64,000 nucleotides of DNA, from the sequence record PQ351811. One strand, 5' to 3'. A program made the translations under genes and the position numbers. Below the pieces are notes generated by a model. It was not told the origin of the DNA, did not search any database, and saw only the letters and a list, made by a program, of their open reading frames with translations. Of this stretch, positions 18,120-49,143 are shown piece after piece (positions within the stretch are counted from its first letter, which is position 1; each line of letters begins with the position of its first letter). This stretch comes from Shigella phage SSG23.

Positions 18120-20660
18120 ATGTCTGATAAAATCAATATTTTACATCAAACTATGGGTCCGGTCTACGCGTCTGTAGGACATGAACTTGTTCTTAAGCTC
18201 GTAGTAAGTACCGCAGATTTTAAAGACTATATCGTAGAATGGAAGCTAAACGGTCAAAGCGTACCATCAGATCAGGTTGCAGAACCAGATCAATCTCTGT
18301 ATATTGCTGAAATGGCAGAAAATCAATTCGGCACATATACAGCGAAAGTTAAGCTGAAAGATAATCCGCTTGAATCGGTTGATATTAAGCCTATTCTTGT
18401 TGAACGTCGCACCTTCCTTGCGCCACATGATCAATCTCCGACCTACATTTACAAGCGGTTAGGCGAAGAATTGGATATTTTTGTTACTCCGTTTATCGAA
18501 GATGATAAAGAGTTTGATACTATTTGGTATAAAAACCATATTCAGTTAGATCAAAGCAAAATCCAACAAAAAAACGTGCATGTAGATCGAGTTGGTTATG
18601 AGGATTTTGGTAACTATACTTGTAAGGTATTTGTTACCGATGATGCACGTTCTCACTATTGGATCAGTCCTGTAGTAGTGGAACAAAATAAAGATGCTCC
18701 TAAAGTTCATATTCAGGAACATTACCCATCAGCGGTTACAGTGGCAGAGGACACGCGATTGGATCTTGAAGTGTCTGTTACGACCGACGACAAAACGCGA
18801 CCATTGTCTTACGTGTGGATTCATAATGACAGGATGGTACTGGATCAAGACGGGACCGCACTGATTATACCGCATGTTACAAAAAAAGATGAGGGTGTCT
18901 GGCGTCTTGAAGTTCGTCAAGCAGAAACTACGGTCTATTCAAAAGATTGTCATGTTACAATACAAGGACGAGCGTTTTTCCGCTTCACTAAACAACCACA
19001 ATCGTTAAATGTGGGTGCTGGTGCTTTAGGTTTGTTCAGTGTTGATTTTGCAACCAACTACGAACCGGTAAAAGTTCAATGGTACATCAAGAAAAATGGT
19101 GAAGATGAATTTAAACCAATTGTTGGCGCAACTAATAAAGATCTTCACATTACACCCGCTACGCAAGAATTAAATCAGGCGAAATATAAGGCTAAGGTGA
19201 CTTATGGTGATAATCAGGTCGCCGATTCAGCAGAAGCGGACCTTCTTGTAGGCGCAGCACCTACTATTAGAATCACTAAGCAACCACAACAGTTAAACAA
19301 TGTTCGAGTTAGTTCTTCACAAACTCTTATTTGTGAAGCAACAACTGATTATGAGCATTATAAACTTGATTATCAGTGGTATAAAAATAATGAGTTGATT
19401 CCTGGAAAAACATCTAAAACTTTGCATTTTTCCTCAATCACTAAAGCAGATGAGGGTCAATATAAATGTAGAGTTTCTATGGGTATTCAGAATCATCGAA
19501 TTACGGCGGATTCTAACGAAGTTCAGGTTACGGTAGACAACTCAAAGGCTAATCTTGAAATCACGGTACAGCCTAAAGCGGTAAAAGTTCGTTCGGGTGG
19601 ACAATGGTCGCTGACTATCACAGCAACGTCTAATGATGCTTTGCCAGTTCGTTACCGTTGGTTTAAAGATGGTGAGGATCTTTTCCCGGCAGGAATTGAA
19701 CAACGAAACGTATATGGCGAAGACCATGCACAATTAACATCTACTGGCGTTTATACATGCCGTGTATCGGCTGGATTCGGTGAACATCGAGTTTCTAAAA
19801 TGTCGGATGCTGTTCGTGTGCTGATCTCAGACGATGTAACGGTTGTTCCAAATGACCTAGAAATAACAACTCACCCACAAGATGCGCATGTAAAATATAA
19901 TGAAAAACTTATGCTACATGCTGCCGCACAAACATCTATTGGTATTAAACCATCATATCAATGGAAAAAAGACGGTGAGATTATCCCAGGTGCAAATTCA
20001 GATGTATTGATCATTGATCACGCAAAACCGTCTGACGTAGGCAGCTACACAGCGGTAATTACGGCGGGTGAGAATACCATTGAATCTAATCCTGCATTAG
20101 TGACCATGACTCATCATTCAAATATCAATATTCTGAAACATCCGGTGGATGTGGTTGCTAAAGAAGGTCAGAAACAGGATATTACCTTAGAAGCTCATGC
20201 CGAACACGTTGATGATGAAAAAGAAGTTCAATGGAAATGGCATAAAATTCAGGGCGGTAAGGATACTGTTATTCCTGGCGCGAATAGTAAGGTGTATACT
20301 ATTCCTAAAGAACAAATTAGCAAGAATGCACATCAAGCAACCTATTATGCAGAAATTACTGACGACGAAGGACATGTTAAACATAGTGAAAAAGTTCGTG
20401 TGGTGTTTACTACCGCGAAATTAAAACGCTATGTACACCCGATTCCGTGGCGTCGTACTTCGTTCCAGTATCAAGGCTATTGGGTACTTGATGAAATTGA
20501 CCGTTGCAACCGCGAAGGGCTTAACTGGCTTGAGGATTTTACCCACACCAAATATCCAGACGAGATCGAGACTATTGCAGCCTCGTTGCATCACTATTCT
20601 AATACTCATGTATTGGAATCTCGTAATGGTTATCTGGTTGATGGTACTCAACTATTTTAA
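18120..20660 (+). CDS. hoc: Hoc-like outer capsid protein with about 8 Ig-like domains
   Basis: repeating roughly 95-aa Ig-like units; C-terminal YVHPIPWRRTSF..ESRNGY module resembles the remembered T4 Hoc capsid-binding end. Confidence 0.8.
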   Translation: MSDKINILHQTMGPVYASVGHELVLKLVVSTADFKDYIVEWKLNGQSVPSDQVAEPDQSLYIAEMAENQFGTYTAKVKLKDNPLESVDIKPILVERRTFLAPHDQSPTYIYKRLGEELDIFVTPFIEDDKEFDTIWYKNHIQLDQSKIQQKNVHVDRVGYEDFGNYTCKVFVTDDARSHYWISPVVVEQNKDAPKVHIQEHYPSAVTVAEDTRLDLEVSVTTDDKTRPLSYVWIHNDRMVLDQDGTALIIPHVTKKDEGVWRLEVRQAETTVYSKDCHVTIQGRAFFRFTKQPQSLNVGAGALGLFSVDFATNYEPVKVQWYIKKNGEDEFKPIVGATNKDLHITPATQELNQAKYKAKVTYGDNQVADSAEADLLVGAAPTIRITKQPQQLNNVRVSSSQTLICEATTDYEHYKLDYQWYKNNELIPGKTSKTLHFSSITKADEGQYKCRVSMGIQNHRITADSNEVQVTVDNSKANLEITVQPKAVKVRSGGQWSLTITATSNDALPVRYRWFKDGEDLFPAGIEQRNVYGEDHAQLTSTGVYTCRVSAGFGEHRVSKMSDAVRVLISDDVTVVPNDLEITTHPQDAHVKYNEKLMLHAAAQTSIGIKPSYQWKKDGEIIPGANSDVLIIDHAKPSDVGSYTAVITAGENTIESNPALVTMTHHSNINILKHPVDVVAKEGQKQDITLEAHAEHVDDEKEVQWKWHKIQGGKDTVIPGANSKVYTIPKEQISKNAHQATYYAEITDDEGHVKHSEKVRVVFTTAKLKRYVHPIPWRRTSFQYQGYWVLDEIDRCNREGLNWLEDFTHTKYPDEIETIAASLHHYSNTHVLESRNGYLVDGTQLF

Positions 20661-22650: not shown

Positions 22651-23088
22651 ATGAAATTCCGTAAAAACCACGTAGCAATGAAAAAAGCAATGTTCGAAGC
22701 GTTCAAAGCAGTTGATCATGGCGGTGTTACTCTGATTGAGCAAATTAATGTTGATGTTTGGCAATCTCCGGCGATCACTTGCTCACGTCTGGCGACGGCT
22801 GGTCTTCTGAACGTTCATAGCTCTACCGCATACGACGAAGCATTGCAAGTTATTAAGGCTTTCGCTGGCGACGTTACCAGTAAGTGGGTCTATGAGAATA
22901 AAGGTGAAATTGCGGTTGCTCATGTAGGCAACAATATCCAGATGGAAATCAAGATTAAGGAAGGGTCTAAACGCAATCAGATGCTTGTTCGCTTCCAGCC
23001 ATACAAAACTAACGTAGTGCCGGATGATCTGATCATCTCTAAGAGCAATGTTACCATTCGCCGAAATCAGATCGTTATCAACAAATAA
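22651..23088 (+). CDS. hypothetical protein (145 aa)
   Basis: SD agaggtga; terminator downstream. Confidence 0.6.
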   Translation: MKFRKNHVAMKKAMFEAFKAVDHGGVTLIEQINVDVWQSPAITCSRLATAGLLNVHSSTAYDEALQVIKAFAGDVTSKWVYENKGEIAVAHVGNNIQMEIKIKEGSKRNQMLVRFQPYKTNVVPDDLIISKSNVTIRRNQIVINK

Positions 23089-23096
23089 TTAACATT

Positions 23097-23121
23097 AGCC
23101 GTCCTTCGGGGCGGCTTTTTT
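23097..23121 (+). terminator. rho-independent terminator
   Basis: agccgtcc-ttcg-gggcggct hairpin followed by tttttt. Confidence 0.7.
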
Positions 23122-23175
23122 GTATCTATTATTGACATAATTTTAGTTTACATTTGGACAATATTAATACTGTTT

Positions 23176-23248
23176 GATTAAATTATGATCAAAACGAAGA
23201 AAGATCTTTAGAACATAGAAAATGTATCTTTGATTAATTATTAATCAC
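23176..23248 (+). repeat. copy A of a conserved AT-rich intergenic motif
   Basis: gattaaattatgatcaaaacgaagaaagatctttagaa... shared with copies at 23325 and 60751. Confidence 0.6.
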
Positions 23249-23324
23249 CACATAATGTAACACAAATGTTATACTCCGTAGGAGTTCGCGAAGCGATATC
23301 CTTTTGTGTAGTTTTTACATATAT

Positions 23325-23395
23325 GATTAAATTATGATCAAAACGAAGACTTATCTTATAGAATAATAAAAATTTGTTTCGAACATTTATTAATC
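23325..23395 (+). repeat. copy B of the same intergenic motif
   Basis: gattaaattatgatcaaaacgaaga identical to copy A over 25 nt, then agaataataaaaatttgtttcg shared with copy C. Confidence 0.6.
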
Positions 23396-23501
23396 AATTA
23401 CCGGAAGTGTTTTATTGCTCGCTGTGCTCGCTTCCGCTACGCGGATACTTGTATTTGTTATTAACTTGTAGTATGATATTGCTTTCTATGGAGGAAATAT
23501 T

Positions 23502-24089
23502 ATGTTTGACCAGTTACAAGATCTATTTGGAGTAAAACCACTTCGTAGATGTGCTTTAATAGGCTCTAGAAAAGCGCCTAGCGACATTTTGATAATGGCT
23601 AGTACCATTGGGAGGGTATTGTCAGAAAATCGCGTTGTAGCGCATTCTGGAGGGGCTTACGGTATGGACAATGCTTTCATGAAGTATTACGATCCAGATT
23701 ATAGAAAAATTTTCATTCCAAATTGGAAGTTTTACGACCATAAGCATAACGGTCATGATGTGATCGCATGGCAAACCTTAGAACAAAAAAATCTGGCGAT
23801 GGATGAATTAGAACACGTTTATGATAATCCTCGTTCTATACCGTTATACATGCAAAATCTGTTTTCTAGAAATGTTGCTCAAGTCTTAGGTGAGACACTT
23901 GATGATCCTGTAGATTGTGTGTTATTTTGGGCGAAAGAAGTTAATGGGATTGTTTCGGGCGGAACTCGAATTGCTGTTTACGTTGCTCGTAGACATGGGA
24001 TACCATGTTTTAACTTATATCATCAAGAAAATAGATCCGCCGTCGAAAAAATCTTGGGCGGATCTGACTTGTCTTGGTTAGATATTTAG
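23502..24089 (+). CDS. DprA/Smf-like (SLOG-fold) protein (195 aa)
   Basis: LIGSRKAP..VVAHSGGAYGMDNAFM and FSRNVAQVLG..IVSGGTRIA match DprA Rossmann-core motifs from memory; SD ggagg. Confidence 0.6.
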   Translation: MFDQLQDLFGVKPLRRCALIGSRKAPSDILIMASTIGRVLSENRVVAHSGGAYGMDNAFMKYYDPDYRKIFIPNWKFYDHKHNGHDVIAWQTLEQKNLAMDELEHVYDNPRSIPLYMQNLFSRNVAQVLGETLDDPVDCVLFWAKEVNGIVSGGTRIAVYVARRHGIPCFNLYHQENRSAVEKILGGSDLSWLDI

Positions 24090-25331
24090 TTAAGCGTTGT
24101 CGATCTCAAGTGGTGGCAGTTCGATACCTAAAATGTAGGACATTTCTGAACGTCCAGCAAGTTTAGCCCACTCGTCACCCTTGACGATCTGGTGTTCTTC
24201 CTGATCAACTTTTGCTGTGTATGGGTTGACAGAAAGTGAATAACGATTCATAATAGCTACATGGTGTTGGAAGCTGTTAGGGTCAATTACGCTCTTATAC
24301 GCTCCAGCGCCATCGGCTTCTGTGTATGGGGAGTAGAACAGAGAACCTACACTCTCCATATCACCGATCATGTGCTTACAACCAACGAGCATATAATCGA
24401 AAGGTGTTGTCGTGTCTGCGTACACTTCAAGACCGCAACGTAGACGACCTTCGCTTAGAGCGTTGTCGGTTTCTTCCATCCATCCGGTAGATTGCAGGAG
24501 GCCAACCACGCGAGAAGACGCCAAAACGTATGTACCAGCAAAGGAGGAAGTACGCAACATTTGATTGCTCATTTCGCAAGCATAGCGGTAAAGTTCGCGA
24601 GCTTGTTTTGGTGCATCCTGAACGCTAACTAGAGAAAGTACGCCATCAGGGGTGATCCCTTTAATTTTATAGCGAGTTGATACAGTGATCAACTTCTGTA
24701 TAATATCTTTGTTGATCTCTTCGGAAGCGACAGTAGCCAGAAGATCAATTACAGAGTTTTCAGAGTTGATTTGGCTTGCTTCAAGATCCTGCATTAATTC
24801 AGTGGTGAACGAGGTTTTCAGTTTACGAGAACCTACATTAACCTGCCACTTGTCAAACTGCATTGACGTTGATGAGATCTCTGTGTTTTTATCTTCAAAG
24901 TATTCTACAGGTGCACAGTCGCTATAGAAACGAATTTTGTTTGTCATCACGCCTTTGAAAATTGCAGCTTCCGGCGTAGCGGCATCTTCACCGACTGTAC
25001 CAGCGGTCACAACTTCGTATACAACATCGCCAGATTTGAACAATGCGCCTTCGTCATAGGATTTTTCTTTTGAAAACTCTTCGATCTCTGTGCGATCGCC
25101 AGCCGCGCCACCATAGGTTGCAGCGGACCGGAAAGTCATCTGACCATCACGGTTAAGATAGCGTAGGCCGTACAATGCAGACACTGGTTGATCCGTTGGC
25201 TGGATTGCTACCAGATCAGAGAAAATCAGGTTGTTTACCGCGCGAGTTAATGATAATAGTTGCGGTCGCGCTGTCTGGTTAGCTACTGAGGAAGTGGATT
25301 CCCGCAACAGTTCAGTAAAAATATGAGTCAT
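24090..25331 (-). CDS. 24: capsid vertex protein gp24
   Basis: MTHIFTELLRESTSS..RPQLLSLTRA..SDLVAIQPTDQPV resembles remembered T4 gp24; start moved to ATG 25331. Confidence 0.9.
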   Translation of the reverse strand: MTHIFTELLRESTSSVANQTARPQLLSLTRAVNNLIFSDLVAIQPTDQPVSALYGLRYLNRDGQMTFRSAATYGGAAGDRTEIEEFSKEKSYDEGALFKSGDVVYEVVTAGTVGEDAATPEAAIFKGVMTNKIRFYSDCAPVEYFEDKNTEISSTSMQFDKWQVNVGSRKLKTSFTTELMQDLEASQINSENSVIDLLATVASEEINKDIIQKLITVSTRYKIKGITPDGVLSLVSVQDAPKQARELYRYACEMSNQMLRTSSFAGTYVLASSRVVGLLQSTGWMEETDNALSEGRLRCGLEVYADTTTPFDYMLVGCKHMIGDMESVGSLFYSPYTEADGAGAYKSVIDPNSFQHHVAIMNRYSLSVNPYTAKVDQEEHQIVKGDEWAKLAGRSEMSYILGIELPPLEIDNA

Positions 25332-25368
25332 GTTTATGAATCCTGTATTTGCCTTAATGGATATATCA

Positions 25369-25376
25369 TATTTATA
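25369..25376 (-). promoter_or_regulatory. T4-type late promoter TATAAATA for gp24
   Basis: tatttata on + strand, 38 nt upstream of the start. Confidence 0.65.
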
Positions 25377-25377
25377 C

Positions 25378-25407
25378 AAAAAGAAAAGGGAATCCCGAAG
25401 GATTCCC
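25378..25407 (-). terminator. rho-independent terminator ending the accessory late operon
   Basis: gggaatcc-cgaa-ggattccc hairpin followed on the - strand by ttttcttttt. Confidence 0.65.
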
Positions 25408-25416
25408 AAATAAAAA

Positions 25417-25569
25417 TTACTTCTTCCTAGAAACATTATCAACGCTACGGTTAACTTTGTTTACCAGATTAATTGCATGATCAGAACGAATAATTGCATA
25501 AGCTAATGCTAACATCAATTCGTCGTATTCCTTACGAGTCATAACATAGCTGTTTTCTTTCTTACTCAT
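25417..25569 (-). CDS. hypothetical small protein (50 aa), not in ORF track
   Basis: ATG with SD aggagg upstream; lies inside the late operon before its terminator. Confidence 0.4.
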   Translation of the reverse strand: MSKKENSYVMTRKEYDELMLALAYAIIRSDHAINLVNKVNRSVDNVSRKK

Positions 25570-25579
25570 GCATTCCTCC

Positions 25580-26512
25580 TTATGGAGAATTTGGGGTTAA
25601 TTCAGGGAACAGCGTACCAAAACCAAAATTACCGCTAGCGTCACGCTGGAATGTCATAACAAGATCGACATAAACCGGATCTGTAAATCTATCAAATCTA
25701 TCCGACCCAATATCAACCATGAACGCTAATTTAATCTCATTGGAATTTGAGATCGCAGCGTCAGCACATGCACCAAAAATTACCTGAGTATCTTTTGCCG
25801 TATATGCATTGACCTGTATGTTGGTTGGTTTCATTACATCGTTAGACAAACCAGATAGTTCTACTCGTCCATTAAATGACGCCAGACTTTGACCACCACC
25901 TAGATAATGAATATGACCACCTTGTGAAGATTGTGTCCAGTCCATAAGCATAACCTTAAATCTAGCCTCAAAACGACCTTCCACGTAATATCGACCAGTT
26001 TCAAAGTTTTGTCTAATTGGTGTCCATGTTATATGTGGTTTTCCGCTTACAGGGTCGACAAGAGTTATGCCTACTGCTGGCGTAATACCTACACTATCAA
26101 ATGAACGTGATAGCCAGTTCCATGTTTGATTGTCTAGGTTTGGCAATTGTGGAATATTCAATCCATCTAATCGGCTGTGTGCTCGTGCTGCTTCCGATTC
26201 TGCGGTAGTCGCTTTAGTCAGTGCATCAGTTGCTTTGCTCATGGATTGCCCTGCCGTTCGATCCGCAACGTCAGCCGTATTTTTTGCGACTTCTGCCGTT
26301 CGGTGTGCCGAACTTGCTGTTTCTGATATTACGTCATCACACGCAATAACAAAATCAATTACAGGATCAATTAACTGAGTGTTGATTGAATTTGAAATTC
26401 TTTCAACATCACTTTCCATTAGAGCATTTGATTCGTTACCAGTGAAATGAGTAATTTCACCTTGAACAAAGTCATTTTGCAACTTACTGATCTTTGCTTT
26501 AATATCGGTCAT
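25580..26512 (-). CDS. hypothetical late protein, possibly structural (310 aa)
   Basis: Ala/Thr-rich helical N-terminal part and beta-rich C-terminal part; co-oriented with capsid genes. Confidence 0.55.
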   Translation of the reverse strand: MTDIKAKISKLQNDFVQGEITHFTGNESNALMESDVERISNSINTQLIDPVIDFVIACDDVISETASSAHRTAEVAKNTADVADRTAGQSMSKATDALTKATTAESEAARAHSRLDGLNIPQLPNLDNQTWNWLSRSFDSVGITPAVGITLVDPVSGKPHITWTPIRQNFETGRYYVEGRFEARFKVMLMDWTQSSQGGHIHYLGGGQSLASFNGRVELSGLSNDVMKPTNIQVNAYTAKDTQVIFGACADAAISNSNEIKLAFMVDIGSDRFDRFTDPVYVDLVMTFQRDASGNFGFGTLFPELTPNSP

Positions 26513-26529
26513 TGATCACCCCTCACTAA

Positions 26530-28260
26530 TTATTGCACTGGTTGCTGGCCTTCTTGCGGAGTTGCTTCAACGCTTTCGATGATAGCACCCCATTTAACCG
26601 CGTTAAGACGAGCTTTTTGTGCATCATCTTCCCCTACGGTCGCCGCAACGCCTTTTTTAGCTTGGAAGTTAGCCCATGTGTTATACGCCAATGCACCAAC
26701 TCTTTTTGCTGTGTCGTATTCTACTTCGTCGACCATCAGCATTGTACGGAATGGTACTAATGAAACATCTGGGTTATCGCTTGATGACCAACTACCACCA
26801 CTAAAGGTAACTTGCCATCGGAACATCTCACCGGATGGTATTTGATTTAATCTCAATTTTAGAGATTTGGTTTTTTGGTTTTTTGTTGCCACGTCAAAAC
26901 CGATATTATAACGCGCGGCTAAACGCTCGCTTCCGTCATTTGTCCTGTGCCACGCCGTTACTGTGAATAAAATAGGAATTGTTTGTGGCGTTTTTATAAA
27001 ACCAACATCAAAAAGCAATTCCATATCATAGCTACCAGATTTAGGCGCAACCCACCAATGATCGGCGTCATTTTGTCGGTTTGGCTCTTTTATTTGTGGA
27101 GTGCATCCATAGTTATCATGAATCACATATTTCCACGGAATATAAAATGAACCGCCACCAGTACCAACATTTGTTTCTTCTATCAGGTTTTGTGCAGTAG
27201 TAAACACGCTGGATACACGAGGAAACGCATAAATGGTAGCACCGCCAGTGTGATCGCTGATCTGCAACCATTCGGTCCATCGATCAGTTCTCTTTGTATA
27301 TGAGCGGTGATACATTACGCCATCAATGCTTGTTGCGATCTGCAATACATGATCTTTACATGCATGAACATCTACAGAACCATGTGTTTGTGTTCCATTT
27401 GGACGGTTTGCCGACCCCTCAAAGTAACAGAAACGGCCTTGTTTAGTCAAGGTGTTCAGGTCGCGGGTTTCTGGTGAAATTTCAGGCAGACGTTTACCCA
27501 GACTGGTTAACATTGCCTCCTGATCACCATTTAAACCACCGCCACCACTTCCTTCCCCGCTTTGAGAGTTCCACTCACGCCATGCACCATTGTGTCGGAT
27601 ACGAGAGTAAACACCACCATCAATAGAACGGACCACTTGAAGAATGCTACCATCGACGACATATACATCTGCGGACCCCTTATTCGCCATCATTGGAGGT
27701 TTGCCATAAGTTGCATCACCTACCGGATAGCGTCCGGGTGATGTGGTTACATCCAGATTATTAATTGGATTCGTCGTAGTCCATTTTACTTCAATTGCAG
27801 ATAGACGCTGCGCAACGTTCGCTAATACTTCTGGTACTGGAAATACAAGAGACTCCTGTGTTCCGTCTGAGTACGTGACTTCTAGAGTCCAGTTGCGATC
27901 GTCCTCGGACAAATTCGCTTCGATCCTAGCAATACCACGTCCATTTTCGCCCTTTTCTCCAGGAATACCCTGTTCACCCTGAATAACCCAGGTCATATCG
28001 ACCCATTTTGATTTATCGTAGGGAGATTGTGCTGTTTTACCAGTCCATAATTGGAGTTTATCACCACAAACAATAATTGTTTTTAGTCTCTCCAATTCTG
28101 GAAAATGTTCGGTAAAGTATGCGTCCCTAGCTTCTTCATTTTCGAAACGGTGAGTATTTTTAATTCCGCAAGGTACGTTAGTTCCGATCTGAATACCGCC
28201 ACCAGAACAACCACCACTCACGGAACCAGCATTAATGATAGCTTGTGGATTTAGCTTCAT
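26530..28260 (-). CDS. collagen-like, glycine-rich fibre-like protein
   Basis: GEQGIPGEKGENGRG triplets; Gly-rich tracts; two similar Y-x-R..W-x-E-W segments; start moved from TTG 28284 to ATG 28260 with SD gggggtaa. Confidence 0.6.
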   Translation of the reverse strand: MKLNPQAIINAGSVSGGCSGGGIQIGTNVPCGIKNTHRFENEEARDAYFTEHFPELERLKTIIVCGDKLQLWTGKTAQSPYDKSKWVDMTWVIQGEQGIPGEKGENGRGIARIEANLSEDDRNWTLEVTYSDGTQESLVFPVPEVLANVAQRLSAIEVKWTTTNPINNLDVTTSPGRYPVGDATYGKPPMMANKGSADVYVVDGSILQVVRSIDGGVYSRIRHNGAWREWNSQSGEGSGGGGLNGDQEAMLTSLGKRLPEISPETRDLNTLTKQGRFCYFEGSANRPNGTQTHGSVDVHACKDHVLQIATSIDGVMYHRSYTKRTDRWTEWLQISDHTGGATIYAFPRVSSVFTTAQNLIEETNVGTGGGSFYIPWKYVIHDNYGCTPQIKEPNRQNDADHWWVAPKSGSYDMELLFDVGFIKTPQTIPILFTVTAWHRTNDGSERLAARYNIGFDVATKNQKTKSLKLRLNQIPSGEMFRWQVTFSGGSWSSSDNPDVSLVPFRTMLMVDEVEYDTAKRVGALAYNTWANFQAKKGVAATVGEDDAQKARLNAVKWGAIIESVEATPQEGQQPVQ

Positions 28261-28267
28261 ATAATAA

Positions 28268-28576
28268 TTACCCCCGTTTAGCAAGATACACGGTTACAGT
28301 AGAATCATTGGAAACAGATTTTACTTTTGCCCTAATAAATGACCATAATGTTTCAAACGCTCCACCATCAGTTGCATATTCATTACCATCAGCTTTCAAT
28401 TCTGAAATAGTGAACCAACCTTTGCCATCTAGAGAACCTTCTAACGAGGCTTCCGCAATGACTTTTTGCCCTTCCCGTGCACCTTCTACGGTCATCTGTA
28501 CTGTCATATGTGTACTATGAACGCAGTTTACCGACGCGGAAACGGCTGGAGTTTTGGTCTTTATAAGTGTGTGCAT
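28268..28576 (-). CDS. hypothetical late protein (102 aa)
   Basis: ATG start with TATAAATA about 39 nt upstream; first gene of the accessory late operon. Confidence 0.6.
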   Translation of the reverse strand: MHTLIKTKTPAVSASVNCVHSTHMTVQMTVEGAREGQKVIAEASLEGSLDGKGWFTISELKADGNEYATDGGAFETLWSFIRAKVKSVSNDSTVTVYLAKRG

Positions 28577-48303: not shown

Positions 48304-49143
48304 TTAAATGTCAAACAAGTCTGAGAGCGTCCCAGACGCTGTTTCTTGTTCTGGTAAGGTAATCTCCTTACTTTCTTCTATTTGTTCGTTAGGACGCGAT
48401 TTAGGCGCTTCTACGGCTTCTTTCTCGTAATACCTAACCTCAACCACTTCTGTTAAAACGTTGGTACTGTGCCATTCATCGCGATAGATTGATGTATCGA
48501 TCCCACATCCGGCATAAGTCACCAAACCAGTTTGTTTGCTCCATTTTAGATATTTATTAGACTTCATTGTTCCGTCATAATAAGGTCTACCGGAATAAGC
48601 AAAACCAGCAGAACCAGCAGGAACAATAAAGTAACCAACATCAGCAAACTTCTGGCCTAATGTCATAACCTTAAATTCAAACTCACCGCCAGTATATTCA
48701 AATACATCCTTTGTGTCGGTTGTATTGATTTTCCCGAAAGGTGGATTGCTAATTACAACATCAAATTTTTCGTTTGATTCAAATTCGAATACATCGCTGG
48801 TGATCCATTCTGCTTCCGGTAATAGTCGTTTACCGATCCGCGCAAATTCTGGATTGAGTTCGACGCATACGATCTTTTCTGGCTTACAACGATGCAACAT
48901 ACAGAAAGATAAACGACCGATCCCAGCACACAAATCTAATACTTTTCCGGTGCAGTGTGCGTCAATGGTAAAATCCCATGCAAGACCCTCTGGAGTAAAG
49001 AATGCACCGGAACCACCTAGACCATCTCCATGATAGTTATTATAGCAAAACTCCTTTTCTTCATATGTCAATGGGCGATCTGAATTGATTAGCTCCATTG
49101 CCCGATCGTGTAATTTTTGTTCTTGTTTGGAAAGTCGTGCCAT
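48304..49143 (-). CDS. SAM-dependent amino-methyltransferase, HsdM/gamma-class N6-MTase-like core (279 aa)
   Basis: FFTP, then VLDLCAGIGRL (motif I), then VISNPPFG (motif IV), in gamma-class order; no obvious target-recognition domain. Confidence 0.65.
   Translation of the reverse strand: MARLSKQEQKLHDRAMELINSDRPLTYEEKEFCYNNYHGDGLGGSGAFFTPEGLAWDFTIDAHCTGKVLDLCAGIGRLSFCMLHRCKPEKIVCVELNPEFARIGKRLLPEAEWITSDVFEFESNEKFDVVISNPPFGKINTTDTKDVFEYTGGEFEFKVMTLGQKFADVGYFIVPAGSAGFAYSGRPYYDGTMKSNKYLKWSKQTGLVTYAGCGIDTSIYRDEWHSTNVLTEVVEVRYYEKEAVEAPKSRPNEQIEESKEITLPEQETASGTLSDLFDI

Follow-up and report, generated by a model that had tools for sequence, protein, structure and literature searches.

How much of DprA is present in a phage protein that public records call DprA-like, and what might the phage use it for? 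The 64,000-nucleotide stretch of Shigella phage SSG23 that we analyzed (sequence record PQ351811; referred to here as the window) carries at 23502..24089, on the + strand, an ATG-initiated coding sequence for a 195-amino-acid (aa) stand-alone DprA-type SLOG (Rossmann) domain protein, which corresponds to ORF164 of phage Phi1 and belongs to PHROG 768. A first-pass annotation of this DNA had read the open reading frame (ORF) as a DprA/Smf-like protein with a SLOG fold, and the sequence confirmed the ORF, its length, and the position of every peptide quoted. The protein matched the PHROG 768 "DprA-like" profile at an E value of 2e-60 (residues 15 to 187 against profile positions 4 to 181 of 191). 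The name "DprA-like DNA recombination-mediator protein," which derives from PHROG 768, is already present in RefSeq and in Pharokka-annotated records, and therefore the basic identification is not new. We found no experimental characterization of any PHROG 768 member in the literature searched. The bare label adds little and overstates the relationship, since the curated DprA thresholds all failed and what is shared is the fold and the nucleotide pocket. Our analysis adds a division of the family into two subfamilies and a putative clamp-binding tail, which turn the label into a testable mechanism. From comparisons of sequences and models, we favor, with slightly less than even confidence, a role as a single-stranded-nucleic-acid binder tethered to the gp45 sliding clamp at forks or gaps.

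The protein combines a SLOG core of the DprA type with the nucleotide pocket of DprA, but it is not a DprA orthologue. Against the Pfam model for DprA/Smf (PF02481), it scored 22.3 bits where the gathering score is 29.6, with a match confined to residues 15 to 60, and against the TIGR00732 equivalog it scored 14.4 bits where the cutoff is 191.15. An hhalign comparison with an alignment of enterobacterial DprA proteins gave a probability of 15.5% (E value of 0.0017 over 66 columns). Across the family, 103 of 119 members matched PF02481 at an E value of <0.01, the best at 2.3e-7. Searches of the PDB by sequence were marginal and do not settle family membership by themselves: the 119-sequence family profile found DprA chains at an E value of 0.01 over only the first ~47 residues, and the single sequence found them at an E value of 0.7. 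Escherichia coli Smf consists of three Pfam domains (PF25317, PF02481, and PF17782), whereas the phage protein is a single domain in its model and lacks both the SAM-like N-terminal domain and the C-terminal winged helix of DprA. By the curated thresholds, we do not consider the protein a DprA family member. Its identity to DprA/Smf proteins is ~20%, and aa ~60 to 115 (about 60 residues) do not superpose on them. DprA/Smf proteins are also cellular and have no clamp-binding-type tail, while this protein is viral and has one.

Structural comparison showed a clear likeness to DprA. An AlphaFold2 model built on the family alignment had a predicted local distance difference test (pLDDT) score of 94.5 and a predicted template-modeling score (pTM) of 0.90, and the nine best Foldseek matches to it in the PDB were all HpDprA structures. 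The model shows the characteristic features of the SLOG superfamily, with a three-layer alpha/beta Rossmannoid fold, a glycine-rich loop, and a GxD element. A fold search of BFVD returned many viral relatives at a template-modeling (TM) score of ~0.75, which were named "DprA-like" or were unnamed. Thus, the first-pass proposal held for the fold, the nearest solved relatives being DprA structures, and for the two DprA pocket motifs described below, but not for membership in the DprA family. The searches returned DprA/SLOG profile matches and no better match to another fold. The LOG/PpnN phosphoribohydrolases and the SLOG sensor domain of ThsA were structurally less close than DprA. We rejected LOG-type catalysis because the PGGxGTxxE motif is absent; the corresponding segment reads IVSGGTRIAV, with Ala158 at the position of the catalytic Glu (Ala in 116 of the 119 aligned sequences). 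The Pfam Lysine_decarbox model likewise gave no match.

The pocket is conserved across the family. Two motifs have been proposed as diagnostic of DprA domains, G-S/T/A-R (with Arg52) and F/L/Y-x-x-R-N/D (with Phe140, Arg143, and Asn144) (Wang et al., PMC3950713), and the structure and mutagenesis of HpDprA showed that both form the pocket for a base of single-stranded DNA (ssDNA) (PMC3950713). Motif 1 corresponds to G21-S22-R23 of the phage protein (23562..23570, +), which aligns with HpDprA G50 to R52, where Arg52 is the ssDNA "switch"; G21 is present in 119, S22 in 117, and R23 in 118 of the 119 sequences. Motif 2 corresponds to L120-F-S-R123-N124 (23859..23873, +), the counterpart of the HpDprA base pocket F140 to N144, with R123 and N124 in all 119 sequences and L120 in 115. 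Between these lies the SLOG/DprA glycine-rich nucleotide loop, S49-G-G-A-Y-G-M-D56 (SGGAxGxD; 23646..23669, +), which aligns with SGGALGVD of HpDprA and in which S49, G50, G54, and D56 are invariant. G153-G154-T155 (23958..23966, +), conserved in 119 of 119 sequences and aligned with HpDprA KSGSMSSA, is the counterpart of the DprA "SGS," whose Gly164 in HpDprA touches the inserted base. Q127 and N171 were also invariant in the family alignment.

The first-pass annotation did not mention the C-terminal tail, which we judge to be the most informative feature of the protein. Residues L185-GGSD-LSWLDI195 (24054..24086, +) form a flexible linker and a hydrophobic/acidic C-terminal peptide that, from tail comparison and pLDDT, is a putative gp45 sliding-clamp-binding motif (SCBM). 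The C terminus (...ILGGSDLSWLDI, followed by the stop codon) has the SCBM layout of an extreme C-terminal peptide on a flexible linker, and the last ~15 residues (...EKILGGSDLSWLDI) are the sole low-confidence part of the model, with the pLDDT falling from 79 to 61. The C termini of T4 gp43, gp33, and gp55 have been described as "highly similar hydrophobic and acidic" and are interchangeable gp45 ligands on flexible linkers (PMC2988020, PMC7892883). The SLOG protein resembles these clients in having a folded body, a short flexible linker, and a hydrophobic/acidic C-terminal peptide; ligase, another client, carries its SCBM elsewhere. In the literature examined, the known gp45 ligands do not include any DprA-like or SLOG protein, and we found there no published link between gp45 and DprA-like proteins.

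The phage's own gp43 and gp33, whose T4 counterparts carry experimentally defined SCBMs, have tails of the same type. Its gp43 DNA polymerase ends ...KVASLTDLFDI and its late co-activator gp33 ends ...DEPTNTLDI; the SLOG tail SDLSWLDI shares with the gp43 tail SLTDLFDI the S at position -8, hydrophobic residues at -4 and -3, and the terminal D-I, and it differs elsewhere. Such endings are rare. The six frames of the reconstructed 168.8-kb genome contain 975 ORFs of 40 aa or longer, of which only five terminate in [LF]DI. Each of the five is a likely gene; their products are gp43, gp33, the SLOG protein, a DNA methyltransferase, and a 100-aa protein whose gene lies between td and nrdA. The methyltransferase (window positions 48304 to 49143, - strand; 279 aa; phrog_3820, E value of 2e-116) ends ...SGTLSDLFDI, and the last 18 nucleotides (nt) of its gene are identical to those of gp43 at 17 positions, making this the sole pair of tails that is nearly identical at the DNA level. 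The methyltransferase may be clamp tethered, as a phage analogue of DNMT1-PCNA. Its gene sits between baseplate genes 8 and 9, 127 nt from the position predicted by mapping from Shigella phage SFHK24, so that either the window and the SFHK24 record differ by an indel in between or the window is from a very close relative. The 100-aa protein (phrog_464) is encoded outside the window, at SFHK24 ~122779 to 123081 (locus L090, 37780 to 38082, +), and ends ...TPENTLDI in the manner of gp33; we count it as the fifth of this phage's candidate clamp clients. We considered whether the SLOG tail was a DNA-level duplication of the gp43 end, but the codons differ, and therefore it is not a copied gene end.

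The SLOG tail also varies with the gp43 tail among genera. In Krischvirus, to which this phage belongs, the pair is ...SLTDLFDI for gp43 and ...SDLSWLDI for the SLOG protein, and the SLOG tail likewise tracks the gp43 tail in Jiaodavirus (...SSLLDMFDF and ...SPRFDIFSL, respectively), Slopekvirus (phiKp_13; ...ASLNDLFGDW and ...PPTLDFLW), and Biquartavirus (44RR; ...NNLFDMFDI and ...LKEFLDL). In Tequatrovirus, T4 gp43 ends ...ASLDFLFG, and T6 has no SLOG gene at the locus between rnlB and gene 24. Metagenomic relatives of the SLOG protein end ...SPSLDFLF, ...SSLEDLFG, ...PTLDFLYD, and ...STVLDI. A strict tail motif was present in 16 of 27 members of the subfamily to which the window's protein belongs (subfamily A, defined below) versus 3 of 136 members of the other (subfamily B).

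The clamp-tethered reading is based on pocket motifs that are invariant or nearly so across the 119 members, together with the similarity of the tail to those of known clients, its rarity in the genome, and its variation with gp43. In this model, the C-terminal tail would dock the SLOG protein onto DNA-loaded gp45. Where single-stranded nucleic acid is exposed, at primer-template junctions, gaps, or recombination intermediates, the pocket would hold one of its bases and the phosphate, much as the ssDNA-binding core of DprA does. The tethered protein could then protect or mark the ssDNA, pass it on to enzymes of repair or recombination (UvsX may be one of them), or assist in rescuing damaged ssDNA, such as ADP-ribosylated ssDNA.

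The family to which the protein belongs is large and overwhelmingly viral. Only 6 relatives were recovered when the single protein was used in a word-indexed search, and an exhaustive profile search and an alignment-seeded search were needed to recover the rest. The exhaustive profile search returned 4,315 clusters (50% identity) at an E value of ≤1e-3, mostly stand-alone proteins of ~180 aa, and homologues detected by tblastn came from 1,342 phage records spanning many host genera. A scan of prokaryotes using one genome for each of 185,579 species yielded only 26 confirmed loci, and a scan of viral contigs yielded 505 confirmed loci among the first 600 pattern matches.

Within this family, the window's protein belongs to a minority. 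The main subfamily (B) comprises 112 of the 119 aligned sequences and has the consensus LRSGGA...HPAW...LHTRN, in which R48, H107-P108-x-W110, and H121 are near-invariant. At the same sites, subfamily A has H or Y at 48, Y, C, or S at 107, D at 108, P at 110, and F at 121. All subfamily A members that we saw came from Straboviridae or from metagenomic sequences without an assignment, and their genes are usually neighbors of rnlB; they include the relatives P0001 to P0006 and those in Gelderlandvirus, Jiaodavirus, Slopekvirus-like phages, and Pseudotevenvirus. Since the subfamilies differ in conserved residues and in genomic company, inferences from the NADAR and Macro associations of the main subfamily should be carried over to the T4-like version with caution.

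All of the informative fusions that we found belong to the main subfamily, and none belongs to subfamily A. They join the SLOG domain to NADAR (P0047, P0125, and P0148), to DUF4326 (P0137), and to RecJ (P0138), and two polyvalent proteins of ~1,480 aa (P0017 and P0019) combine SLOG with YAcAr, LDcluster4, and NADAR. NADAR was present in 5 of the 10 long family proteins scanned. A 4,523-aa polyvalent protein at IMG/VR locus L040 (29-13597) carries a main-subfamily SLOG domain followed downstream by a Dda-like SF1 helicase. At IMG/VR locus L027 (48-5642), a 1,865-aa ORF also embeds a main-subfamily SLOG domain; most of the length of these two giant proteins had no Pfam match. The fusions to RecJ and to the Dda-like helicase, both ssDNA enzymes, support the nucleic-acid reading, and ShosA, another DprA-like protein, pulls down RecJ.

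Around the SLOG gene, unbiased clustering of ORFs from 80 viral loci revealed mainly small ORFs that vary from locus to locus and share its strand. PhoH was the commonest neighbor (17 loci), but we rejected it as a conserved partner because it lies a median of 5.3 kb away and is a common phage gene. In 74 viral loci tallied for NAD+- and ADP-ribose-related genes, Macro was found near the SLOG gene in 10 (7 of them within 3 kb), NADAR in 3, nicotinamide phosphoribosyltransferase (NadV) in 9, and phosphoribosyl pyrophosphate synthetase (Prs) in 6. Phage PaoP5, for example, has the gene order Prs-NadV-x-Macro-x-x-SLOG. The contexts with Macro or NadV neighbors belong to the main subfamily. Among the 26 bacterial loci, NADAR was present in 5 and Macro in 3.

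These associations are the basis of the strongest rival explanation, in which the protein is a counterdefense SLOG protein that works beside Macro and NADAR enzymes by binding or cleaving soluble molecules derived from NAD+ or ADP-ribose, such as Thoeris-type cyclic ADP-ribose signals. Family fusions to NADAR, DUF4326, and other SLOG domains fit this explanation, as do the viral and bacterial neighborhoods, and viral SLOG, Macro, NADAR, and DUF4326 domains have been predicted to cooperate on ADP-ribose derivatives (Iyer, Burroughs, Anantharaman, and Aravind 2022, PMC9503650). This Krischvirus genome itself encodes a gp30.3-type NADAR protein (PF08010, E value of 1e-38), whose gene adjoins that for DNA ligase, and a Macro protein (PF01661). 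However, both genes lie tens of kilobases from the DprA-like gene in this phage. A local search of the genome found no NadV, Prs, or rnlB gene. Every fusion seen is in the other subfamily, and R48, H107, P108, W110, and H121 are all replaced here; the catalytic Glu of LOG proteins is an Ala; and a clamp-binding tail is hard to square with an enzyme of soluble metabolites. Moreover, phage NADAR acts on ADP-ribosylated DNA and not on a soluble signal: T4 gp30.3 (AdfN) strips ADP-ribose from guanine in DNA, thereby defeating DarTG1. For this reason, the NADAR, RecJ, and helicase fusions can also be read as centered on ssDNA. We consider the soluble-metabolite explanation unlikely for the window's protein. 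The first-pass annotation had offered a SLOG-type nucleotide-binding protein as an alternative; it is supported at the level of the family by the NADAR, Macro, DUF4326, and NadV associations, but these come from the subfamily to which this protein does not belong.

Several observations weigh against clamp tethering and ssDNA binding. The family context points to NAD+/ADP-ribose chemistry, through the NADAR fusions and through Macro, NADAR, NadV, or Prs neighbors in 17 of the 74 viral loci, and UvsY already serves the phage as recombination mediator. The tail motif has few residues, hydrophobic/acidic C termini are not rare, and a loose version of the pattern was present in 30 of 136 subfamily B proteins. 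The matches between SLOG and gp43 tails are of type and not of sequence, gp55 of this phage lacks a DI ending, and about a third of subfamily A members have no clear tail motif.

Somewhat less probable than clamp tethering itself is a broader model in which the protein is a previously unrecognized Straboviridae replisome accessory. Here, a polymerase-like peptide would hold a DprA-type ssDNA/base-pocket module on gp45, and the module would survey forks and gaps for single-stranded phage DNA to shield or rescue, for example, by shielding it from ssDNA-targeting defenses such as DarT ADP-ribosylation or by handing it off to UvsX. Because the methyltransferase and the nrdA-adjacent protein carry the same tail, the gp45 "tool belt" would be wider and more evolvable than gp43, gp33, gp55, and ligase. 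If the tail does bind the clamp, the replisome of the phage would include an ssDNA binder of the DprA type. The proposal also provides a testable hypothesis for a gene family of thousands of members, and clamp-binding tails are suggested as a means of finding new replisome clients in T4-like genomes.

The first-pass annotation had suggested a recombination mediator acting with UvsX and UvsY, for which we obtained no direct support. As a true DprA-style mediator, the protein would dimerize, coat ssDNA, and load a recombinase, either UvsX of the phage or RecA of the host, and would thus supplement UvsY during recombination-dependent replication. In its favor, the fold is closest to that of DprA, the motifs of the pocket are conserved, and the phage encodes UvsX, UvsY, gp32, gp59, and UvsW. 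ShosA, a DprA-like protein outside competence, binds ssDNA and RecA, and clamp tethering would position the protein at recombination intermediates. However, counterparts of the DprA dimer and RecA interfaces were not recognizable in the phage protein, because the sequence match ends after ~60 residues. In HpDprA, the dimer interface is formed by the region that follows the last strand; its counterpart here, helix 175-184 and the tail, is not conserved in the family. The SAM domain, which ShosA needs for its own stability, is absent, UvsY already fills the role, and T-even phages do without the SLOG gene. In the phages examined, uvsX and uvsY were always more than about 5 kb from the SLOG gene; the distance between uvsY and ORF164 in Phi1 is ~6 kb, with nine genes between them. 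We regard a DprA-style mediator as improbable, slightly more so than a binder of soluble NAD+ or ADP-ribose derivatives.

ShosA and PsyrA, antitoxins of the ShosTA and PsyrTA antiphage systems, share the DprA-type Rossmann domain, and the equivalent ssDNA-binding arginines of ShosA and HpDprA correspond to R23 and R123 here. By analogy with AdfN, an orphan NADAR antitoxin active against DarTG1, the phage protein might be an orphan antitoxin mimic that replaces unstable ShosA or PsyrA and so blocks abortive infection by ShosTA or PsyrTA. The PADLOC models gave 20.8 bits for PsyrA and 17.9 bits for ShosA, limited to a generic N-terminal match of ~45 residues. ShosA is host encoded, is about 310 aa long, has a SAM domain, and is paired with a phosphoribosyltransferase (PRTase) toxin, whereas the phage protein has no SAM domain, and no PRTase-type toxin gene lies beside the window's SLOG gene, the neighbors of which are ORF165 and gene 24. 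An antitoxin mimic would also leave the clamp-type tail without a role, and the literature examined on ShosA and PsyrA does not mention phage homologues. We therefore give this explanation very little weight.

Synteny in other genera raises the final rival, a repair partner of RNA ligase 2 (RnlB) that would bind RNA or the RNA-DNA junctions sealed by Rnl2. In Jiaodavirus and Gelderlandvirus, the SLOG gene follows rnlB with a stop/start overlap at the same gene 24-adjacent locus, and the order rnlB-SLOG recurs in Pseudotevenvirus and in Slopekvirus-like phages, where NadV lies 1 to 2 kb downstream; in all four groups, rnlB is directly upstream on the same strand. However, this Krischvirus keeps the SLOG gene although a local search found no rnlB, and T-even phages show the reverse, with rnlB retained and the SLOG gene missing, as in T6, where rnlB abuts gene 24. 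We therefore rejected rnlB as an obligate partner and interpret the arrangement as ancestral synteny in which neither gene needs the other; adjacency may simply be inherited in a plastic region. A partnership with Rnl2 is the least probable of the rivals, just below the antitoxin mimic.

The gene appears to be set apart from the transcription unit that precedes it. The preceding gene ends at 23088, as the first-pass annotation had it, leaving a 413-bp noncoding gap (23089 to 23501). An intrinsic terminator found by sequence scan, with an 8-bp GC-rich stem and a T-run (23097..23122, +), closes the preceding unit, and therefore the DprA-like gene needs its own promoter. A candidate sigma-70-type (early) promoter, TTGTAT-17 nt-TATGAT (23449..23477, +), lies 25 to 50 nt before the start codon, and a Shine-Dalgarno sequence, GGAGG (23490..23494, +), can be read directly 7 nt 5' of the ATG. 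The promoter evidence is weak, because the element scored under the threshold of the promoter scan. A stem-loop scan found a small GC stem-loop just before it (23433 to 23445). This layout is similar to that of the PeSLs, the early-promoter/stem-loop cassettes of RB49 and Phi1 (PMC2839356). On these sequence signals, expression of the DprA-like gene is probably driven by an early-type promoter dedicated to it. The gap also contains a perfect TTGACA (23132 to 23137) without a properly spaced -10 element and two exact copies of a 26-nt direct repeat (TGATTAAATTATGATCAAAACGAAGA) at 23175 and 23324, 149 bp apart. There are no further copies of the repeat elsewhere in the window, and we rejected the repeats as promoter parts because their spacing is incompatible with sigma-70.

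The window is from a Krischvirus of the RB49/Phi1/JSE group. Over 2 kb surrounding the gene, the sequence matches that of Shigella phage SFHK24 at 100% identity, and 56 further Krischvirus genomes from that group match it at ~97%. The DprA-like gene is the last of the block inh-hoc-ORF167-24.3-ORF165 and is convergent with the head-vertex gene 24. By program, gene 24 occupies 24090 to 25442 (- strand) as a 450-aa ORF from a TTG start; because it is annotated at 413 aa in Phi1, translation probably begins instead at an internal ATG near 25331.

Two other parts of the window differ from Phi1. Between inh and hoc, an 846-aa ORF with multiple Ig domains (18120 to 20660, +; Ig_3 E value of 9e-40, with a PKD-like domain) stands where Phi1 has only a 54-aa ORF; its product has the look of a second decoration protein of the Hoc type, giant in size and specific to the strain. 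In the interval from head gene 24 to head gene 23, where Phi1 has only two tiny ORFs, the window has an insertion within the late capsid block that contains a 310-aa ORF with a weak alanine-zipper/coiled-coil match (25580 to 26512, - strand) and a 584-aa ORF with no Pfam match (26530 to 28284, - strand).

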